A stretch of 64,000 nt of DNA from Verrucomicrobiota bacterium (GTDB lineage Bacteria; Verrucomicrobiota; Verrucomicrobiia; Limisphaerales; AAA164-E04): NCBI GenBank assembly GCA_047947115.1, contig CP170459.1, positions 4,736,001 through 4,800,000 on the forward strand, written 5' to 3'. Positions 6,704-64,000 of this stretch are shown here, one piece after another; the stretch's first letter is position 1; the number at the start of each line of letters is the position of its first letter. Both the position numbers and the translations under genes were made by a program. The notes under the pieces were generated by a model. That model was given only the letters and a program-made list of their open reading frames with translations. It ran no database searches and was not told where the DNA came from.

Positions 6704-9700
6704 TTAAAGAGACTGCATTTGCAGATAGGCAATCAGGTCGGCAAGATCCTGATCGCTCAGTGCCTCTCCCCACCCCTCGGGCATCAGTGAGCGTGTGGCG
6801 GGTCGAAGCGATTCAACCTGGTCATTTGGTATGGATCTTTTCTCGCCGGTAGTGGTGGTGATTGCGATACTGTCTGCTGTTTGTTCACCCAACAACACCG
6901 TCCATTCCGTTTCATCTTTCAACACCAGTTCGTGTGCCAGGTAGGTTTGTTCGATGGCATCGTTTGGATTCAGGATGGCGGTGAGCAAGGCCAGTCCGGA
7001 CCGGTCGCTCAGAGCATTGAGATCCGGCCCGACACTGGCGCCCTCTCCACCAAACAGATGACAGACACTGCAGTTCTGCTTGAACAGTTCCTGTCCGTGC
7101 CTGGTGTTCCTGGAAAGTTTGGCGATCTTTTCGAAGCGTTGCTGGACGGTTTGATCGGGAACACGGTTCAAACCCAACCGATGTGAACGTTGATCCAAAG
7201 CTTCTTTAACAATAGGTTTCAACGCGGCATTGGGGAGATTCCTCAAAGCGATGGTCATCTCGGGAGTGATGGTGGCATCAACCAAAGGTTGTTCGCCTGA
7301 TTCGAAATGTCCCGTCGCCAAAACGTTCAGAAACCGTTTTGTCCAGGATTCACGCTTCAACACAATCCCCAACAAGATCCGGCGTTCTTCCAAAGAACAA
7401 CGATTCCACAAGGATTCAAGCCAGCCTGAATTTTCACCTAAAGATTCCGGGCGATTGGAAATCTGGTTCAGGATGTGGCGCTTCGTCTCCGTACCCAAAC
7501 CACTCTGCCCAGCGAACAAATATTCAAGCCACGGAACCCAGTCCTGAACCCCGCCCAGAGCAAACATGAAATCAAAAGCAAGGATCCTTTGTCCAGTAGA
7601 AGCTTGAGCATCAAGCAGCACGGGAATCATCAGTTCCGTCATTTCCCTGACAGGCCAGCCATCGGCTTCTTTCACTGATCCGCCGCTCTTTGCAAATTGT
7701 GTCAGAAGTGAGATCTTACCTGACAGGCTTTGGTCCGTGACGCCCGTTTTACCGGCGTATCCGTTTGCAAGTGATTCTACTGATAAATCAGGATCCAGCG
7801 GCAAATGCGCCTTAGGTTGGAGGGCACCACTTTTTTCTTGATCCAAACGAGTGGCTTGCCGGACCGCATGGTCCAGCCACGGAACTTTTTCACGAAAGGC
7901 CAAACTCAACAGGTCGTTGCGCAACGGCCCTTCCAGACATGTTTCACACGACATGGCGTGCTTCAACATGGGTTCCAGATGAACGCTGGCAGTGGTCAGC
8001 AAAGCCTCCTTGAAATAAGGCCGTCGTTGGTCCCGATGCATCGCTTGAGCCAGGAAGTCGCCACTCCATTCATTTTCAACTGCACCGAGCGTCAAGATGG
8101 CCTGATAACGTACGGACCGGGCGGGATCTTCCAGGAGTTTTGAAAACGTTGATGCGTATGTTTCCTCAGTTTCCAAGGCTCTTTGGTAGGCAGCAAATTC
8201 AGACAACTGGAGAGCATTTTCCCTCACTCCTTCATGTGGATCCTTCAGAATCGCCAGCAGGTCATCCACACTCAAGTGACCCAGTCCATGCAGTGTCCAC
8301 ATCGCATGAAGTCGCGCTTTGGGTTGAACGGCCGTTCGCAGCATGGTCTTAAGCACGGCGGACTGTCCTTCGGCGTGAGAAGAAACAAGCAAACGCTGGG
8401 CTGTATCCCGAACCCATCCGTTATCGTTCTCCAGCATGACTGTCCATTCTGAAGCAGTCATGGAATCCATGTTTGGCATACCACGGTTGTCGACACCTTT
8501 TCGGTGAATGCGATAAATGCGGCCCTTGTCCGTACCCGCTCGGGTGTCCATGTATTGTTCAACATCATCCGGAATCCATTCGGTATGCTCGATGATCAGC
8601 CGGTACATATCCGAAACATACAAAGCGCCATCCGGTCCGGTCTTGGACATGGAGGGGCGAAACCAGGGATCGGTGCTGGCAAAGAACTCACGTTGCTGTT
8701 CGTCCTCCGGCCGGTTTGCTTTGAAACTCATGCCATCCGGCTCCAACACAAGGTGCCTGACGAGATTATGCACGGGTTCACAAATGAAAACATGCTGTTT
8801 GTCATCATCAAACAAAACGGTGTCACGGTATAGTGACGGGCCGCAGGCCGAAGTTACGTGCCCCCGCATGCCAATGTCATTGAATCGTTGAAGCGTGGGA
8901 GCGATTTGATTGACCTTTTTCAGTTCCGGTTCGCTTGCCAATTGAATCTTGTTGGATCCCAGGTCTGCAAACGACACCCGACCTGCATAGCGTTCGGGAA
9001 GATGGTAGTGCCAAAGCCAGTTTGGATTGTTGTTGCCAAACCAATGCCCCCAATCGTCGCGGCGCCTGCCAAACTGCGTCTGTCCTTCCACCCTTTCAAA
9101 CCTACCACTCACCGGATCAAAACGGAAATCCCTGCGACGAATGTCCCACTCCTCATCCGACCAGAGAGATCGGACTATGCCGCTGCTGTCTCCATTGGCA
9201 CCATACAATTGATGATCCAGACCATAAACGAATCCATTGACGAGATGCTGCTGATTCCACACCCCGAATCCGTCAAAAAGCCTCCTCACAAGATCCGCCT
9301 TGCCGTCTCCGTCCAGATCGGATGCGAAAAAGACATTGGGTGCGGAGCTAATCCACAACCCATTTTCCCATGGATAAATACCATTCGGGAACGGGATCTG
9401 ATCCAGAAAAATCAATGACTCATCATATACACCATCTCCATCCACATCCTCCAGGCGCTTGATCCGTCCACCAGGGGCACCGGCCCCATCCAAGCCCATG
9501 GGATAATCCCTCATTTCCGCCACCCAGAGGAAACCATCCGATGACCATTCGAAAGCCACCGGATCTTCGACCAGTGGTTCGGAAGCCACACATGTCAACT
9601 CGTAGGAATCTCCTACCTGAAGTGATGCCATCGCTTCGGACAGGGATTTGGGTTTGGGACGGTTACCCAAAAGGATTTCCTGAAACGCTTTACGCTGCAC

Positions 9701-56652: not shown

Positions 56653-57801
56653 TCATCCCGGGCGCACTGCATCGAGTATTGTGTCGGCCATCATGTCCAA
56701 CTGTCCCACCCAAACTTCACGCCAGGCATCGGGCATGAACATCCAGACAACGGCTGCCAGTGCAATGTAGGGACCATAGGGAAGTCGACTGGACCAGTCA
56801 CGTTTCCCGATCAGGATCAGAGACACCCCGATGGCAGCTCCGATCATCGAACTGATCATCAGGGAAAAGAAAGTGGAATGCCAACCCAGGAAAGCACCGA
56901 TCGCCCCCATGAACTTGACGTCTCCAAATCCCATGGCTTCGCGAGGCAAGGTTATGGCATGGCAAACAGCTTCCATGTGAGGCACTTCATTGGGATCGTA
57001 TGAATCGTCACCGATGACCAGTTTCTTTTGGGACAGACTCACTTTCACCCCGGCATAACAACGATCCACCAATTCAAGTCGATCCGCTTCAAATCGAATA
57101 CAATCTGATTTGCGATAAAACAATTCCTCATAAGGAACCTCTTCATCAGGCAGGACCAAGGATGTTTCCGTGAAGACCAATTTGGCGGAATCAGGAAGCG
57201 CAACATGCATCTTCCCGAACATCAGTTTTCCGAGGCGCACGATGGAATAGACCAGCAGGAACCCCACCGCCCCCCCCAAGGCACTTCGTTCAAACGCGCT
57301 CATTCGATTTGGAGCATCCTGCAATGCCGGCACGGCCACTGAAAACACCAATCCCGCACCGATACCACCGAGGGTGATTTGATCCGGTATGATGAAATGT
57401 TCAAAATCAATCAAGGTCGCCACGACAAAGCCGGAAAGAATCGTCGCATAGGCCAGCGCCAAGCCGGTGGAAACCGGTCCCATCACCCACCAAGTCACCA
57501 GAAAAAGCAAACCCGTCAACAATTCCACCGCGAAATACCGAAAACTGATGGGAGCCTTGCATTGAGCGCATCGGCCACGCAGGACCAGCCACGTGATCAG
57601 GGGCATGTTGAGATACCATGGAATCCGATATTCACAATGCGGGCAATGAGAAGGCGGATGAATCACGCTCAAATCCCGCGGCATCCGGTGAATGCACACA
57701 TTCAGAAAACTTCCCACCATACTGCCCAGAATAAACCAGGCAACCGACCAGAAATGAAACGGCACGTACTGCCAGCGTTCGGGATCAAGTAATGAAGTCA
57801 T
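56653..57801 (-). CDS. pilD: Prepilin peptidase (A24) with an inserted soluble domain
   Basis: GSFLNVCIHRMP, SHCPHC, RCAQC, IDFEHFIIPD, MGFGDVKF, LPYGPYI. Confidence 0.9.
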   Translation of the reverse strand: MTSLLDPERWQYVPFHFWSVAWFILGSMVGSFLNVCIHRMPRDLSVIHPPSHCPHCEYRIPWYLNMPLITWLVLRGRCAQCKAPISFRYFAVELLTGLLFLVTWWVMGPVSTGLALAYATILSGFVVATLIDFEHFIIPDQITLGGIGAGLVFSVAVPALQDAPNRMSAFERSALGGAVGFLLVYSIVRLGKLMFGKMHVALPDSAKLVFTETSLVLPDEEVPYEELFYRKSDCIRFEADRLELVDRCYAGVKVSLSQKKLVIGDDSYDPNEVPHMEAVCHAITLPREAMGFGDVKFMGAIGAFLGWHSTFFSLMISSMIGAAIGVSLILIGKRDWSSRLPYGPYIALAAVVWMFMPDAWREVWVGQLDMMADTILDAVRPG

Positions 57802-57821
57802 GATACAATGATTCCAACATC

Positions 57822-58766
57822 TCAATGGGCCGAAGGTTTCCCGTAAACATGAGCATGGAGCGCCTCTCTCATCACATCGGTGGGAGCCGGCCTGCCGGTC
57901 CATATTTCCAACGCAGCGGTTCCCTGATACAAAAGCATACCAAGCCCGTTGGCCGTTCGACACCCGGAAGCACGAGCCGCCTGGAGGAGTGCTGTTTCGG
58001 CGGGTTGATATATCATGTCGTAAACACTGTCGACGTTTCGCAAGTTGATCGCTTCCAGATCCAGTGGCAGATCATCACTGGTTTTCAGCCCAAGCGAAGT
58101 GGCATTCAGCAACAGATCAATGGAATCCCCATGCCTGGGATAGTCCAGGACGATGTCGACATCGGGGTATTTCGCCTGAATATCCCGGGCAACCGCTTCT
58201 GCTTTGGGCCGGGTTCGGTTGATGAGGTGAAGACGACTCACTTTGGCGGATGCCAGTTTCATGGCGGCCACCCGTCCTGCTCCACCCGCGCCCAGCAGGA
58301 CGCATTTGCTTCCCTTCAATCCCATCTCCAGATCTTCCTTGATGGATCGCAGGATTGCGTCGGCATCGGTGTTGAACCCGACACTACGAATGGACTCGAA
58401 TCCGGTTGGATCCTCCGCCTGTCCAACAGGCACCCACTCCCCGCCGCTGGTCTGTCCTTCGAAACGAATCGTATTGACCGCCCCCCATTCCCTGGCGGCG
58501 GGATCCACCTCATCCACCCAGTCCAGTGCCAACAATTTGTGAGGCACGGTCAAATTCAGTCCTACGAACCGCATGGACCGCGCGCCGGCCAGTGCCAGGT
58601 CCAATTGTTCAGGGGCTACGTCGAACGCCAGATAACGCCAATTCAACCCCATATCGGCGATACCGGCGTTCTGCATGGCAGGCGATGCGGAGTGCCGGAT
58701 CGGATGTCCGTACACGGCCGCATACAAGGTCGAGGCATTCAGATTGCTCTGTTGATTCAATGACAC
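57822..58766 (-). CDS. aroE: Shikimate dehydrogenase
   Basis: HSASPAMQN, NLTVPHK, GAVNT, NTD, LGAGGAG, NATSLG, GLGMLLYQG. Confidence 0.95.
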   Translation of the reverse strand: MSLNQQSNLNASTLYAAVYGHPIRHSASPAMQNAGIADMGLNWRYLAFDVAPEQLDLALAGARSMRFVGLNLTVPHKLLALDWVDEVDPAAREWGAVNTIRFEGQTSGGEWVPVGQAEDPTGFESIRSVGFNTDADAILRSIKEDLEMGLKGSKCVLLGAGGAGRVAAMKLASAKVSRLHLINRTRPKAEAVARDIQAKYPDVDIVLDYPRHGDSIDLLLNATSLGLKTSDDLPLDLEAINLRNVDSVYDMIYQPAETALLQAARASGCRTANGLGMLLYQGTAALEIWTGRPAPTDVMREALHAHVYGKPSAH

Positions 58767-58938: not shown

Positions 58939-59597
58939 ATGTTGGCAAAAATTGATGCGGCTTCGGTTCGTGGAATCGAAGCATTTAAAGTAGAAGTGGA
59001 AGTCCACGTCGGTTACAGCGACTCCTGTGTCGTGATCGTCGGACTTCCGGACGCCGCCGTGCGCGAATCTCGCGACCGGGTCGGATCAGCCATGTCGAAC
59101 AGCGGATACCGCTTTCCTCAAGGTCGCACCACCATCAACCTCGCACCGGCCGACCTAAAAAAAGAAGGTCCCAGCTTTGATCTCCCCATCGCAATGGGCA
59201 TCCTTGCCGCAAGCGAGCAGATGGAACCCTGTTTACTGACCCGCTACATGCTCGTGGGGGAACTGGCACTGACGGGTGCCGTTCGACCGGTAAAGGGTAT
59301 TCTGCCCATCGCTCTCCGGGCCAAAGCCGAAGGCAAACGTGGCATCATCGTGCCAAGCGAAAACGCCCACGAAGCGGCCGTGGTCCAGGGCATTGAAGTC
59401 ATCCCCGTTCAAAACCTGCGCGAAGCGGTTCATTTTTTGGAGGAAGAAGTACCCATATCCCCGTGTCGAGTGGATCTCGATTCGCTTCTGGGCAAAACCA
59501 TCGATCCCGCATTGGATTTCAGCGATGTCAAAGGCCAGGAATCCGTCAAACGAGCGCTGGAAATCGCCGCAGCCGGCGGACACAACGTATTGTTATT
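58939..59597 (+). pseudogene. comM: 5' part of comM/YifB (Mg-chelatase-like AAA+ ATPase), interrupted by an insertion
   Basis: VGLPDAAVRESRDRV, INLAPADLKKEGPSFDLPIA, DVKGQESVKRALEIAAAGGHNVLL; the expected GPPGxGK Walker A is replaced by unrelated sequence with a stop at 59641-59643. Confidence 0.92.
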
Positions 59598-59601
59598 GAG
59601 G

Positions 59602-59629
59602 TTGCAAATACCTTTTGGAGTGGTATGCT
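59602..59629 (+). promoter_or_regulatory. Candidate sigma-70 promoter of the integrase (leaderless mRNA)
   Basis: TTGCAA-16 nt-TATGCT with extended TGn; the ATG begins 7 nt after the -10 box; no SD. Confidence 0.5.
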
Positions 59630-59635
59630 TCACAA

Positions 59636-61291
59636 ATGCCTAAAGCTTACTCATATATCAGATTTTCTTCCCCCGAACAACACCGTGGCGATTCCTTGAG
59701 AAGACAACGTGCTGCTGCGGAAAATTACATTTCTGAACACCCTGAGTTAAAGCTTCATCTGGACGAGGATGTCTCAATGCTAGATTCCGGAATTAGTGCT
59801 TACAATCAGGACAATGTGTCAAAAGGAGCACTTGGCCGGTTTATGGACACTATGAGAGAGGGTAAAATAGAAAAAGGATCTTATCTACTGATTGAATCCC
59901 TAGATAGAATGAGTCGAGCGGAACCTTACAAAAGTGCACTGCTGCTCTTAGAAATAGTAAAGGCAGGTATCAAAGTTGTCACCTTGTTCGATGAAAAGAT
60001 TTACTCTGAGAATACATTGAATTTCGATAATTTGATCCTTGCCATCTGCACATTCAAAAGAGCTCATGATGAGTCTGAAACAAAATCCAAAAGAATCAAA
60101 TCCGTATGGTCAAGGAAACGCGGTTATGATTCGGTAATTACGAAACGATGTCCTCATTGGTTGGAATTCGACGAAAACGAGGGAGCTTTTAAACCTATTC
60201 CTGAAAGGGTCGAGTTGTTGGAAACGATTTTTCAAAGATTCTGCAGTGGTGAGGGCAAAGACAAAATTGCACGAAGTCTGAATAAAGCTGGAGAATCGCC
60301 ATGGGGAAGAGGAAAAGGGTGGCATGCTTCTTACATTCAAAAGATAATTCGTAACAGATCGGTTATAGGAGAATTTCAACCTCATGAATTATTTGATGGA
60401 AAAAGGATTCCTGTTGGTGAAATTAAATCAGGATATTATCCGGCAGTCATTTCCTCTCAACTATTTGAAAAAGCACAACAGCGCTTAAGTTCCTCCAAGC
60501 ATCAGAAAGGAAAACGTTCAGAAAATTTTACAAATCTATTCTCGGGTTTGGTTTACAGCGGCTTGACAGGATCATCAGTGATCTATGTTTCAAAGGGATC
60601 TAAAAAAACACAGAAATACTTGGTCTCCAGTGACGCAAAATCAGGCCTTGGTGAAAAATATGTCAGTTGGAGATATGATGCTTTTGAAATCTCGTTCTTA
60701 ACTAGCCTCCGCGAGTTGGATTTAAACTCCCTGCTCCCACCTCTTGAGCAAGCTGATAATAAATCTACGGAAGAAATAGCCAAAATTAACCAGAATCTTG
60801 CCTGTATTGAGAAAAGTCTAAAAAATATCCAAGATGGAATTGAGCGCGGCTCCAAAAAAGTCACAACACTCGTAAACCGAATGGCTGAACTGGAAGAAGA
60901 ACGAGCAATAATTTTAGAGAATCTGCAAGTTTTGCAAGATGAAATCGAAACACAAAATGCCATAAAAGCGACAGTAACAAATGCATCAATAGACATTAAA
61001 AGCCTAATCGAAGACCGTTTCAAGCCGGATATTCGCAAAAAACTATATGTTGAAATCCATAATTTAGTTGGAAAAATCGAGATTTTTTTTGAAAACAGCC
61101 CTTTTACAGCATCGGACGGCCTTGCATCGGAACATCCAGATCTACCACAACTTATTGCTGGAAGGTGTTTTGTGATTCATTTCAAATCCTTTAATTACTC
61201 CAAAGCCTGTTTTCCATCAAAAAAGGACCCAGCAATAGTACCAGTAATAATTGATGATTTGCGAGTTTCTGAAAAATTAAGAGCAGAATAA
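59636..61291 (+). CDS. Large serine recombinase (integrase)
   Basis: AYSYIRFSS (catalytic Ser), DSLRRQ, IESLDRMSR, ESETKSKR; recombinase domain IARSLNKAG..WHASYIQKII..YYPAVIS; C-terminal coiled coil. Confidence 0.95.
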   Translation: MPKAYSYIRFSSPEQHRGDSLRRQRAAAENYISEHPELKLHLDEDVSMLDSGISAYNQDNVSKGALGRFMDTMREGKIEKGSYLLIESLDRMSRAEPYKSALLLLEIVKAGIKVVTLFDEKIYSENTLNFDNLILAICTFKRAHDESETKSKRIKSVWSRKRGYDSVITKRCPHWLEFDENEGAFKPIPERVELLETIFQRFCSGEGKDKIARSLNKAGESPWGRGKGWHASYIQKIIRNRSVIGEFQPHELFDGKRIPVGEIKSGYYPAVISSQLFEKAQQRLSSSKHQKGKRSENFTNLFSGLVYSGLTGSSVIYVSKGSKKTQKYLVSSDAKSGLGEKYVSWRYDAFEISFLTSLRELDLNSLLPPLEQADNKSTEEIAKINQNLACIEKSLKNIQDGIERGSKKVTTLVNRMAELEEERAIILENLQVLQDEIETQNAIKATVTNASIDIKSLIEDRFKPDIRKKLYVEIHNLVGKIEIFFENSPFTASDGLASEHPDLPQLIAGRCFVIHFKSFNYSKACFPSKKDPAIVPVIIDDLRVSEKLRAE

Positions 61292-61318
61292 CTTTTCCAC
61301 CCAATGATTCGAATAATC

Positions 61319-61336
61319 TCTAAACGGACGTTTAGA
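61319..61336. other. Candidate serine-recombinase crossover/binding site
   Basis: Perfect inverted repeat TCTAAACG-GA-CGTTTAGA with a 2-bp core, between the two recombinase genes. Confidence 0.55.
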
Positions 61337-61373
61337 CTTGTGTTTTTTTCATTGTAACCTTACGATTTTACAT

Positions 61374-62054
61374 ATGGAATCCTTCGTAGCCTATTATCGA
61401 GTCAGCACACAAAGACAAGGGCAAAGCGGACTTGGTCTGGAAGCACAACAATCAGCAGTATCCCAATACATCAATGCAACCGGCGGAAAACTGGTAGAGG
61501 CATACCAAGAAATTGAATCGGGCCGCAACAATGATCGCCCAAAATTAAGAGATGCATTGCTCACCGCAAAAGCCAATAAGGCAAAAGTAGTTATTGCAAA
61601 ACTAGATCGTTTAGGGCGTCGAGCATCTTACATTCTGCGCCTAATTGACGAATCCGGTGTGGACTTCCATATTTGTGATATGCCCGATGCTGACAAATTG
61701 ACAATAACTATATTAGCTGCTGTAGCGGAGCGAGAAGCATCTGATATTTCAAAGCGAACAAAAGTAGCTTTAGCTGCAAAAAAAGCACGCGGAGCAAAAC
61801 TTGGAAACCCCAGACTTGAAGAAGCGAGGGCAAAAGCGTTGAAGAGCAACAAGATCATAAACACCGAACGCCAACAGAGATACAAAACAATCATTTCAGA
61901 AATCATCACTAAAGGAAGAGTCACAACACATAAGGAGATTGCTGAATGTTTGAATGCACGCGGAATCTCTACTGCAAGGGGTGGTAGATGGCATACAACA
62001 TCGGTCAGGAGACTAATCCCCTTTCCTGTTGAAACGTTTGCGGAATCTTTATGA
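61374..62054 (+). CDS. Short serine recombinase (resolvase catalytic domain + short recombinase-type DNA-binding tail)
   Basis: FVAYYRVST, SGLGLEAQ, IAKLDRLGR, ISKRTKVAL, GAKLGNP, IAECLNARGISTARGGRWHTTSVRRL. Confidence 0.93.
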   Translation: MESFVAYYRVSTQRQGQSGLGLEAQQSAVSQYINATGGKLVEAYQEIESGRNNDRPKLRDALLTAKANKAKVVIAKLDRLGRRASYILRLIDESGVDFHICDMPDADKLTITILAAVAEREASDISKRTKVALAAKKARGAKLGNPRLEEARAKALKSNKIINTERQQRYKTIISEIITKGRVTTHKEIAECLNARGISTARGGRWHTTSVRRLIPFPVETFAESL

Positions 62055-62339
62055 TATTTATGACTACGCACTTCTTCATCTTGAAATCCAACCCGCGCAA
62101 AATTGGGACACAGCGATCCACGAATACTTCACGACCATTACAAAGCACTGGTATCACATAAAGAACTTGAACAGTTTTGGATGTTAGATCCAAATTCAAT
62201 TCTCTGATTCTGCTTTCCGCACTTGTTCAAGACATTCAGAAAAATTTTTGAAAGATTGTGTTTACTTGGTCGATATCTCAAAAGAAATGGGTTTGATCAA
62301 ATTAATTAGTCATTATATGCGAAACTGGAGATTCAGTAT

Positions 62340-62445
62340 AAAAAAAGCCGCCCCAGCGGGACGGCAAGAGGATACCACTTGGGATACCCTACGTAATCGA
62401 AATACTTTGTTGTGAAAAGCATTTCAAGGGATAGCTTGATACACT
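62340..62445 (-). ncRNA. Putative tracrRNA
   Basis: Minus strand reads anti-repeat-like AGTGTATCAAGCTATCCCTTGAAATGCTTTTCACAAC, then AAA, nexus-like GTA-TTTCGAT-TAC-GT, hairpin AGGGTATC/GGTATCCT, and terminator GCCGTCCC/GGGGCGGC + T7; immediately upstream of cas9. Confidence 0.75.
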
Positions 62446-62451
62446 GGAGAC

Positions 62452-62480
62452 ACTCTATACATAATTGGAAAGAACGTCAA
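62452..62480 (-). promoter_or_regulatory. Candidate sigma-70 promoter for the tracrRNA
   Basis: TTGACG (62480-62475)-17 nt-TAGAGT (62457-62452); predicted +1 near 62445, at the anti-repeat boundary. Confidence 0.6.
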
Positions 62481-62486
62481 TAACAT

Positions 62487-64000
62487 ATGCAAAATAAAAT
62501 CTTAGGTTTAGATTTAGGTACAACATCTGTTGGCTGGGCTCTGATTCAAACGGGTGATGATGATGGAAAGATTCTCGGTGGAGGAGTACGGATTTTTCAA
62601 GGTGTCACAGAAGAGAAAACAGGGGCATTAAAAAACCAAAAACGGCGCGAAAAACGCGCCCAAAGGCGTAATATCCAAAGAAGGAGCAGGAGAAAAACTG
62701 CGCTTAAAAAAGCACTTACTGTTGCAGGTCTGTTGCCAAATGACGTGCTTGATCCGCATAAAGCTCCAAAAGTTTTAAACCAAATCCATCCTGACCCTTA
62801 TCTTCTCCGATCAAAAGCCCTTTCCACTAAACTTTCAGATTACGAATTGGGGCGTGCCATTTTAAACCTTGGCATGCGCAGGGGCTTTTTAAGCAATCGT
62901 AAAGCAGGAAATGATACGGACAGCAAACATGTCCAGCCGGCCATCGATAAACTGACTCAAGAGATAGAAGACACAGGATGCGCCTCCTTGGGGGATTACC
63001 TTGCGAATCAGCCAACAAAGAGAGGCAGGTATACCCATAGATCAATGTTTGAAAAAGAACTGAATTCCATCTGGGCGGCTCAAAGTCAGCACAACCCAAA
63101 GTTAACTTCTGAATTAAAATCAAAAATTGAACATTACCTGCTATTTCAAAATCCATTAAAAATTCAAAAATTTTTGGTAGGACAATGTGCTCTAGAGACA
63201 AGCAAGAAACGAGCGGCAAAGTGGCAGCCTATAGCGCAACGCTTCAGGATTTGGCAAGACGTCAGCCGAATTAGATTTACTCATACTGGGATGCCACTCG
63301 ATTGGGCTCAACAAAAGAAGCTGGTAGATGCATTGGAAAGTAAACCTAAGCTGTCATGGAAAGCTGTTAGAAAATTAATTGAATTGCCAGATGACACCAA
63401 ATTTAACCTAGAGGAAAGTGGAGCACTCAAGGAACTCAAAGGTAACGACACTAACGTCAAACTAACCAAAGCCCTTTCAAATTTCAACGAATCGCTTTCC
63501 CCTGAGAAGAAATCTAAAATTCTCGATTGGCTCGATACATCAGATACTGATGAATTTTTAATAAGGAAATTGAAAAAAGGTTTTAATTTCGATGAAAAAA
63601 CAATAACTGCCCTGACCAAGTGCAAATTGGCTTCAGGATACCTCCACCTGAGCGTGAAGGCCTGCAACAAAATAGTTGATGCATTTGAAACGTCCAAATT
63701 ACCTCTCAGCTACAGGGAGGCGGCGGAAAAAGCCGGTTATAACCTGAACGAGTTGAAAGATAGCGAAAATTTTCCTAATCGCCTGCCACTGCCGCCTAAA
63801 CTTAGAAATCCTACGGTCGAGAAGACTCTCTCCGAAACGCGCAAGGTCGTAAATGCAATCATTCGAAAATTTGGCAAACCAGATAGAATTCATCTAGAAA
63901 TTGCTCGGGACTTAAAAAATCCTAAGCGGGTTCGAGAAGAAATTCACAAACACAACAGGGAACAGGAAAAACTTCGTGAAAACGCCAAAAAAGTCCTTGA
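62487..64000 (+). CDS. cas9: CRISPR-associated endonuclease Cas9, type II-C-like (first 504 codons; runs off the window, so absent from the ORF track)
   Basis: Manual translation without stops: MQNKILGLDLGTTSVGWA (RuvC-I, D9), GVRIF, Arg-rich bridge helix NQKRREKRAQRRNIQRRSRRK, DPYLLRSKAL, RRGFLSNRK, FQNPLK, GQCALE, RNPTVEKTLSETRKVVNAIIRKFGKPDRIHLEIARDL (RuvC-II, E471). Confidence 0.96.
   Translation, partial: MQNKILGLDLGTTSVGWALIQTGDDDGKILGGGVRIFQGVTEEKTGALKNQKRREKRAQRRNIQRRSRRKTALKKALTVAGLLPNDVLDPHKAPKVLNQIHPDPYLLRSKALSTKLSDYELGRAILNLGMRRGFLSNRKAGNDTDSKHVQPAIDKLTQEIEDTGCASLGDYLANQPTKRGRYTHRSMFEKELNSIWAAQSQHNPKLTSELKSKIEHYLLFQNPLKIQKFLVGQCALETSKKRAAKWQPIAQRFRIWQDVSRIRFTHTGMPLDWAQQKKLVDALESKPKLSWKAVRKLIELPDDTKFNLEESGALKELKGNDTNVKLTKALSNFNESLSPEKKSKILDWLDTSDTDEFLIRKLKKGFNFDEKTITALTKCKLASGYLHLSVKACNKIVDAFETSKLPLSYREAAEKAGYNLNELKDSENFPNRLPLPPKLRNPTVEKTLSETRKVVNAIIRKFGKPDRIHLEIARDLKNPKRVREEIHKHNREQEKLRENAKKVL

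Follow-up and report, generated by a model that had tools for sequence, protein, structure and literature searches.

We identified a 40,247-bp genomic island of low GC content that splits the host comM gene at a 5-bp core and carries a complete CRISPR-Cas9 locus directly behind two serine recombinases. It is highly probable that this locus is self-contained type II-C defence cargo of the island, with the large recombinase likely to integrate and excise the element without Cas9. The window analysed, 64,000 nucleotides of contig CP170459.1 (positions 4,736,001 to 4,800,000), ends inside the island, and features beyond it are given in contig coordinates. An earlier sequence-only reading had described the order comM 5' half, large serine recombinase, palindrome, small serine recombinase, tracrRNA-like gene and cas9, which is confirmed in the sequence, and had offered two interpretations, a mobile type II-C defence cassette or a functionally coupled recombinase-Cas9 system. 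The full cas locus, the island ends and the empty site support the first of these.

The 5' half of comM, a host gene for a YifB-family Mg-chelatase-like AAA ATPase (Pfam ChlI and Mg_chelatase 1-27; NCBIfam TIGR00368), lies at 58939..59594 on the plus strand. Its 3' half was found in frame 40.2 kb further on in the host contig (contig 4835837-4836712), the gene being broken at the GGHNVL motif. Contigs of metagenome runs X1, X2 and X3 match the host through 59594 and then enter the 3' half, which sets the left limit of the island at 59595, where the earlier reading had begun the element. The attL site (59590..59605) contains the core TTGTT (59590-59594), common to the right end (contig 4835837-4835841), and a 7-bp arm (59599-59605) that recurs in inverted orientation as an arm within the right end (contig 4835823-4835829); both att ends fit exactly. 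The empty comM site was thus seen in three of the four metagenome runs; the DNA that holds it in X1 and X3 shares 98.6-99.9% identity with the host flank. Across the insertion site, comM is uninterrupted in six of seven congeners. Contig depth in the metagenome runs was 5-26 for the host flank and 2-5 for most island pieces, which hints that island carriers are a minority in the population, contig depth being no share of cells. In runs X5-X14 the share of words was consistent with the host comM part alone.

Beyond the window, the island carries surface-type and nuclease cargo after the CRISPR array, a type I restriction-modification system (contig 4825630-4831202) and a polymerase-like gene of 543 aa (contig 4833820-4835451), for which a PolA-like fold is a weak prediction only, followed by attR. 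Some of its sequence is duplicated within the island, and copies of short repeats of the host also occur there. No relaxase, conjugation or type IV secretion, or capsid or virion gene was found with Pfam among its 26 ORFs of about 100 aa or more, 10 of which had no Pfam family and 12 of which were also scanned with PHROGs, and it was therefore not classed as an ICE or prophage. What we found, a Resolvase plus Recombinase protein at the element end, a target gene split between ends that match, and relatives in which the site is empty, identifies a comM-targeting large serine recombinase island.

The large serine recombinase (551 aa; 59636..61291, plus strand) has Resolvase and Recombinase domains, Ser11 and a DRMSR motif and lacks a CxxC pair, and is predicted to be the integrase of the island. 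The relatives examined are all distant, with 23-44% identity on the best segment. In 32 of their 75 loci comM sequence lies within 700 nt, in some at other comM positions, and in all 16 inspected cases where the 5' half lies on the same strand, comM is interrupted at the GGHN/GAHN motif, as it is here. Neither Cas9, cas1, cas2 nor an array-like repeat was present in any of the 75 loci, 57 of which have at least 4 kb downstream, and the Cas9 profile recovered all 20 control stubs. Among the loci adjacent to comM, 24 have 4 kb or more downstream, and a scan of 90 of their 163 ORFs showed cargo that includes methylases, EcoRII, type ISP, OLD nuclease, relaxase, transporters and hydrolases. No relative of the large recombinase turned up in a scan of viral contigs, and the large recombinase, the small recombinase and Cas9 were each absent from all 21 other genomes of the family.

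Extension of the contig, which the earlier reading had proposed as a check, located the HNH and RuvC-III residues, cas1, cas2, the array, attR and the 3' half of comM. The type II-C cas9 gene (995 aa; contig 4798487-4801474, plus strand) has its first 504 codons in the window (62487..64000). Residues that correspond, by SpCas9/SaCas9 numbering, to those of RuvC-I (D9), RuvC-II (E471), HNH (H559 and N582) and RuvC-III (H691 and D694) are present, including the two RuvC acidic residues, D9 and E471, that had been called intact from the window. By sequence, the closest entries in the PDB are Cas9 chains about 1,080 aa long. Directly after cas9 lie cas1 and cas2 (contig 4801452-4802665) and then a CRISPR array of nine identical repeats and eight spacers (contig 4802713-4803278); csn2 and cas4 are absent from the locus, and all backbone and cas reading frames are open. 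By its gene content, this is a complete, ordinary type II-C CRISPR-Cas locus in the order tracrRNA-cas9-cas1-cas2-array.

The predicted tracrRNA (62340..62450) lies on the minus strand and is read away from cas9, toward the recombinases. It has an anti-repeat at about 62445-62409, two hairpins and a terminator at 62365-62347 with a T-run. In the anti-repeat, 34 of 36 repeat bases pair, at -55.5 kcal/mol versus -43.3 on the other strand, and the fold has a z of -3.9. Rfam gave no match to it at the gathering score, nor to anything else in the window, and the call follows from repeat complementarity and fold, which agree with the tracrRNA-like gene noted earlier beside cas9. A promoter-like site for the tracrRNA lies at 62480-62452, and a divergent candidate for cas9, a consensus match only (10 of 12 positions), lies at 62436..62465 on the plus strand.

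Cas9 is rare in the order, with hits in 3 of 400 other genomes (E 1e-40), and the order-wide search returned matches at 33-42% identity only. The nine closest relatives share 55-63% identity, the longest of their contigs being 36 and 58 kb; two metagenome scans, by Cas9 protein and by Cas9 alignment, and a viral scan found no match that would give the context of such close relatives. Of 20 further Cas9 genes from the phylum, 18 of them with 8 kb upstream, none had a serine recombinase upstream, and the recombinase profile recovered all 18 controls; the Cas9 genes whose context was read are distant, at about 30-38% identity, and the 55-63% clade falls outside this comparison.

Phage defence is assumed to be the role of the CRISPR locus. 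Matches of the whole array to phages and plasmids were at chance level, spacer 6 had no exact match among viral contigs, and two weak matches to parts of the array came from 300 genomes of the order. A non-array contig of run X1 seems to contain the spacer 6 sequence, judging from loose ends at both spacer edges that are assumed to belong to one contig; no target was found for the other seven spacers. Against the host's own genome, both comM halves included, none of the eight spacers came closer than 8 mismatches. The same result speaks against a TnpB/IscB-type homing or retention nuclease, which we rejected. The sequence-only reading had held that Cas9 would be passive cargo if relatives of the recombinases carried unrelated cargo and if cas9 sat in an ordinary cas9-cas1-cas2-array locus with phage spacers; the unrelated cargo and the ordinary locus were found, and a phage match of the spacers was not.

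The small serine recombinase (226 aa; 61374..62054, plus strand), with a Resolvase domain and the start of a Recombinase-like helix-turn-helix, is most likely an accessory recombinase or resolvase. At 12 of the 75 loci its family accompanies the relative of the large recombinase, never as this same-strand tandem, and it is a recurrent, loosely tied passenger of the large-recombinase family. This family of serine recombinases of about 220 aa may merit separate study. Between the two genes lies an 18-bp palindrome with 8-bp arms (61319..61336). The palindromic site reported earlier is real but does not exceed chance, as the island holds three such palindromes compared with 1-6 in 10 shuffles. 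Its sequence occurs once in the genome. Strong relatives of the small recombinase were found at 21 loci, one of them without upstream DNA, and in a single locus any palindrome of this kind lies upstream, of unrelated sequence. We therefore rejected it as a res or att site; possibly it is a terminator or operator. That no intact gene interrupts the stretch up to cas9 held true, and we found in addition the remnant of a tyrosine recombinase C-terminus (LGH...HY) at about 62091..62207 on the plus strand, with no start and with stops upstream. The remnant matches six places in the genome (E 6e-5 to 0.02), and the two of these that were checked are both Pfam Phage_integrase genes.

One alternative is that the small recombinase, the remnant and the CRISPR locus make up a separate nested element, which the small recombinase moved into the comM island at a later time. 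Members of the small-recombinase family are found on 18 viral contigs, of which 16 lack a second serine recombinase of the large type, the two recombinases do not co-diverge (Mantel rho 0.15, p 0.15, 13 pairs), and in run X3 the DNA just past the array is joined to other sequence, a loose end at position 9281 of the searched locus. Nevertheless, we consider this very unlikely, as there is no second copy of the palindrome and no other matching ends around the cassette, Cas9 is absent from all 93 loci searched, those of small-recombinase relatives included, and the remnant sits between the small recombinase and the tracrRNA. An equally small chance is given to the proposal that Cas9 is, within its nearest clade (55-63% identity), a permanent component of a two-recombinase element that integrates into comM and has its own polymerase-like gene. 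Cas9 would then serve the element by cutting rivals or controlling recombination, and the island would both block its own removal by transformation and police incoming DNA.

Functional coupling of the recombinases and Cas9, in which Cas9 would guide, guard or license recombination or cut the empty comM site for retention, is slightly less credible still. TnpB keeps IS605 elements in place by cutting the vacant site, which provides an analogy. Both recombinases and cas9 are directly adjacent on the same strand, GC3 is similarly low (0.28-0.36) in both recombinases and the cas genes, and the closest Cas9 clade falls outside the contexts compared. Against this, no spacer matches comM or either island end, cas1, cas2 and a normal array are retained, and the minus-strand tracrRNA with its terminator and the integrase remnant separate cas9 from the recombinases. 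The order of two recombinases and cas9 recurred in none of the 75 recombinase loci and none of the 20 Cas9 loci, and the coupled system first proposed is therefore unsupported; the locus is no evidence for an RNA-guided recombinase. CRISPR-associated transposons are defined by Tn7-like transposase genes and a nuclease-deficient effector; no such transposase genes were found among the 26 island ORFs and the Cas9 residues are intact, which led us to reject this class. Least probable of all is a fixed, decaying island in which neither the recombinases nor the CRISPR locus still works, since the remnant, the duplications and host repeat copies, the lack of transfer genes among the 26 ORFs and the short array stand against open frames, identical repeats, exactly fitting att ends and empty sites in X1 and X3 whose near-identity to the host flank points to recent movement of the island.

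Under the preferred reading, CRISPR cargo on a comM island, knowledge of the family suggests that the large recombinase would recombine the att site of the element with the conserved GGHN-L site of comM, whose reading frame would be restored by exact excision. A split comM may leave the host less capable of removing the island through transformation. Paired with crRNA and with the tracrRNA made in the divergent direction, Cas9 would cleave mobile DNA entering the cell, in parallel with the type I restriction system of the island. The tyrosine-integrase remnant may mark an older insertion between the small recombinase and Cas9, and Cas9 probably adjoins the small recombinase because cargo accumulates just inside the integrase end. 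The island provides a clean example of a Cas9 locus entering a lineage where Cas9 is rare, its ends defined to the base, its site found empty in the same populations and its genes intact, and offers as a resource a compact Cas9 with a predicted tracrRNA and a predicted integrase with known att sites.

In the literature searched, which comprised main texts and few subscription journals, we found no description of the exact combination, and similar cases may be listed in the LSR tables of PMC10083194. Elements of large serine recombinases with a Mg-chelatase/comM gene as site-specific target have been described by Durrant et al. (PMC10083194), whose accessible text names no Cas9 cargo, in contrast to this island. 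Mobile elements that interrupt comM in Acinetobacter carry defence systems such as CBASS and Zorya (PMC11472951; review PMC12378983), but more than half of them are Tn7-like AbaR elements, whereas the present island has a serine recombinase, Cas9 and type I restriction-modification. Type II-C loci reported in 10.1101/402107 lie at a fixed chromosomal place and are irrelevant as a precedent. SCCmec type V(5C2&5) is a recombinase cassette with an active CRISPR-Cas system of type III-A as excisable cargo (PMC10434264), and the SCCmec backbone includes the replication gene CCPol, an A-family polymerase (PMC7581432). Our island resembles these cassettes in combining recombinases with CRISPR cargo, but differs in host, target and CRISPR type; for its polymerase-like gene a PolA-like fold is a weak prediction, and no helicase or MP partner was recognised. 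CcrA/CcrB models scored far below cut-off and the target is comM, unlike the proteins and target sites of SCC and DsiB/DsiA-type islands.

The Dehalococcoides ssrA islands have such a DsiB/DsiA module beside attL, in which a 540-aa serine recombinase precedes a smaller one of 200 aa, and two putative complete CRISPR modules are among the cargo of 31 islands (PMC3146451). A large and a small serine recombinase stand in tandem at the element end here too, although the target is comM rather than ssrA, and the ParB, Mom and other module genes reported in the accessible part of that account were not seen in our island. In Vibrio natriegens, a 30-kb integrase island absent from a sister strain carries type II-B CRISPR-Cas and a restriction system (PMC6360697). 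That island has a tRNA target and other integrases, unlike the type II-C locus within comM described here, but both place a Cas9 locus and restriction-modification together on an integrase island.

We identified the 40-kb low-GC element that splits comM as a genuine insertion, occupying 40,247 bp including one core (G000:C1:4795595-4835841, on the host contig CP170459.1). At the point where comM is interrupted, GC content drops from around 0.53 to 0.40; it recovers 40 kb further on, where the 3' half of comM picks up in frame; the island as a whole stands at 0.425 compared with 0.511 for the genome. A 5-bp core is common to both ends and a 7-bp inverted repeat lies in the inner arms. Among four metagenome runs compared, X1, X2 and X3 yielded contigs that pass from the host through window 59594 directly into the comM 3' half, with one difference in 1,594 bases relative to the host in X3 and 22 differences in X1, while the site lay outside the coverage of X4. 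This empty site fits either excision or a site that was never occupied. In addition, comM is unbroken across the site in six of seven congeners, the seventh giving no match at all, and none of the large recombinase, the small recombinase and Cas9 was found in 21 other genomes of the family.

At the right end, in-frame ATG codons (L003:1795-1836; L001-L003 are stretches of the host contig covering the island) precede the comM 3' half, from which the AAA+ part of ComM without its N-terminal domain could still be produced. We also noted an ORF resembling a prepilin peptidase, as judged by eye, 1 kb ahead of comM (window 56653-57963, minus strand), and an open comEC-family gene elsewhere in the genome (G000:C1:2195626-2196474); because of these two genes, the host may be naturally competent.

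The gene order proposed from sequence alone was borne out. The plus strand of the window (G000:C1:4736001-4800000) carries the comM 5' half, a large serine recombinase (551 aa, Resolvase and Recombinase domains, 59636-61291), a small serine recombinase (226 aa, Resolvase domain, 61374-62054) and, at the window end, the first 504 codons of cas9, the predicted tracrRNA (62340-62450) lying ahead of cas9. The tracrRNA prediction stands, with 34/36 repeat bases paired, a fold z of -3.9 and a terminator at its end, on the minus strand, unlike cas9. Divergent promoter-like sites, one for the tracrRNA and one for cas9, are individually weak evidence, since 12 such sites were found against 7.8 expected. 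No other intact gene separates the recombinases from cas9; a C-terminal tyrosine-recombinase stub follows the small recombinase, ahead of the tracrRNA. Several tyrosine-recombinase genes of the stub's family are present elsewhere in the genome, which matches the stub at six places, G000:C1:3848473-3849618 and 4537518-4538711 among them.

Extending the contig recovered every part expected beyond the window, namely the HNH/RuvC-III motifs, cas1, cas2, the array, attR and the comM 3' half. The complete cas9 (G000:C1:4798487-4801474) encodes a protein of 995 aa that contains both HNH and RuvC domains, and D9, E471, H559, N582, H691 and D694, which we take to be the catalytic residues, are all present and invariant across the nine closest relatives; D9 and E471 are the RuvC acidic residues already noted as intact. 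It is followed by cas1 and cas2 (G000:C1:4801452-4802665) and an array of nine identical 36-nt repeats and eight spacers (G000:C1:4802713-4803278), with neither csn2 nor cas4 in the locus, which is an ordinary type II-C locus.

We consider it highly probable that this Cas9 locus is self-contained defence cargo and that the large recombinase moves the island at comM without Cas9. The recombinase would put the island into comM and take it out, disruption of comM would shield the island from loss by transformation, and Cas9 and the restriction system would provide independent defence against incoming DNA. The complete cas locus and the unrelated cargo beside recombinase relatives agree with the passive-cargo reading offered earlier. 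The relatives comprise 75 loci: all 30 from a species-genome scan, 6 standing for 7 places of a phylum search and 39 for all 40 places of an order search. Their cargo is mixed and includes several defence genes (90/163 ORFs scanned, 24 loci). Sequence of comM lies at most 700 nt away in 32/75, and all 16 inspected relatives with a same-strand 5' half break comM at the same motif. Relatives at L050, L051, L105, L111, L006 and L091 sit elsewhere in or next to comM, either around residues 134-148 in the 3' half or close to the gene start. A second large-recombinase match is present at L012, L016, L017, L023, L024 and L051, in some cases severed at contig ends.

The small recombinase belongs to a large protein family, found on 18 viral contigs, two of which carry a second serine recombinase fitting the large-type profile and none of which carries Cas9. 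Family members of 215-240 aa occur near the large-recombinase relative in 12/75 loci (L009, L028, L102, L104, L105, L111, L113, L117, L118, L119, L127 and L128), ten of these being among the 39 loci from the host's taxonomic order. They lie 1.5-8.3 kb from the large-recombinase start, tail to tail in four loci, so that spacing and orientation differ. In nine genomes selected for co-occurrence, all ten copies were those near the large recombinase; a tenth genome, not so selected, had none. Sequence distances of the two recombinases were uncorrelated across 13 pairs. On these comparisons, the small recombinase is a regular companion of the large-recombinase family and not a fixed partner. The 18-bp palindrome ahead of it (window 61319-61336) is no more frequent than expected by chance. 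That the island contains a separate nested element is very improbable.

Functional coupling of the recombinases with Cas9, which the sequence-only reading had also raised, was not supported and appears very improbable. Around the 75 recombinase relatives, 57 of which have at least 4 kb downstream, sufficient to reveal cas9 at the distance seen in the island, tblastn found no Cas9, cas1 or cas2, two profiles found no Cas9 (the second recovered 20/20 control stubs), and no array-like repeats were seen. Conversely, neither a serine recombinase nor comM lies upstream of Cas9 in any of 20 loci chosen among the best matches (42 + 3 genomes with a match), 18 of them with 8 kb upstream. The order is thus not repeated among the relatives compared, which are distant ones, the nine closest Cas9 proteins, at 55-63% identity, lying outside the comparison. 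The complete cas locus also argues against coupling, as does the lack of a self-targeting spacer: elsewhere in the genome no spacer finds a match with fewer than 8 mismatches, which leaves both comM halves untargeted. Searches of phages, plasmids and genomes of the order with the array, and of viral contigs with spacer 6, gave no convincing target. In run X1, a match appears to cover the full length of spacer 6 (L001:9081-9110), breaking off into loose ends on either side with flanks unlike the repeat, which suggests a candidate protospacer on a non-array contig. That the island is simply dead is scarcely credible.

The remaining cargo includes an SNase nuclease, three large Ig/LamG-domain proteins, ankyrin, DUF2130 and BspA-type LRR proteins and a type I restriction system (G000:C1:4825630-4831202), and no transfer or virion genes were recognised among the 26 island ORFs. 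Two of the Ig/LamG-domain genes (L001:16802-L002:6290) have a 2.3-kb stretch in common at 95% identity, and a third gene holds a 636-bp piece of it. Contigs of X1, X3 and X4 diverge from the island at L001:7332-7600, 7405, 9241, 9281, 10051, 10357 and 11632, one being an inverted join; judging from such contigs, related islands with different cargo order or array content seem to exist. A gene 385 bp from the right end (G000:C1:4833820-4835451; L002:19820 to L003:1451) encodes an orphan 543-aa protein. It has five homologs, and its model (pLDDT 69, built on six sequences) weakly resembles the family-A polymerase fold (best PDB E 6e-5, TM about 0.35). In a circular island, this gene would come before the integrase on the same strand.

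We found no description in the literature, supplementary tables aside, of a serine-recombinase island at comM that carries a type II-C Cas9. Its components have precedents in published accounts. Site-specific large serine recombinases often target Mg-chelatase (comM-family) genes (PMC10083194), and protection from removal by transformation through comM breakage has been proposed for other comM elements (PMC11472951, PMC12378983). Islands of Dehalococcoides, with a large and small serine recombinase pair at attL and CRISPR modules in their cargo (PMC3146451), resemble the comM island in both respects. An excisable SCCmec cassette bearing CRISPR (PMC10434264) is likewise comparable as a recombinase cassette; an A-family polymerase gene is a further component of SCCmec (PMC7581432), to which the weak fold prediction for the 543-aa protein offers a tentative parallel. 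Finally, a Vibrio island holding Cas9 and a restriction system (PMC6360697) is like the comM island in combining the two.
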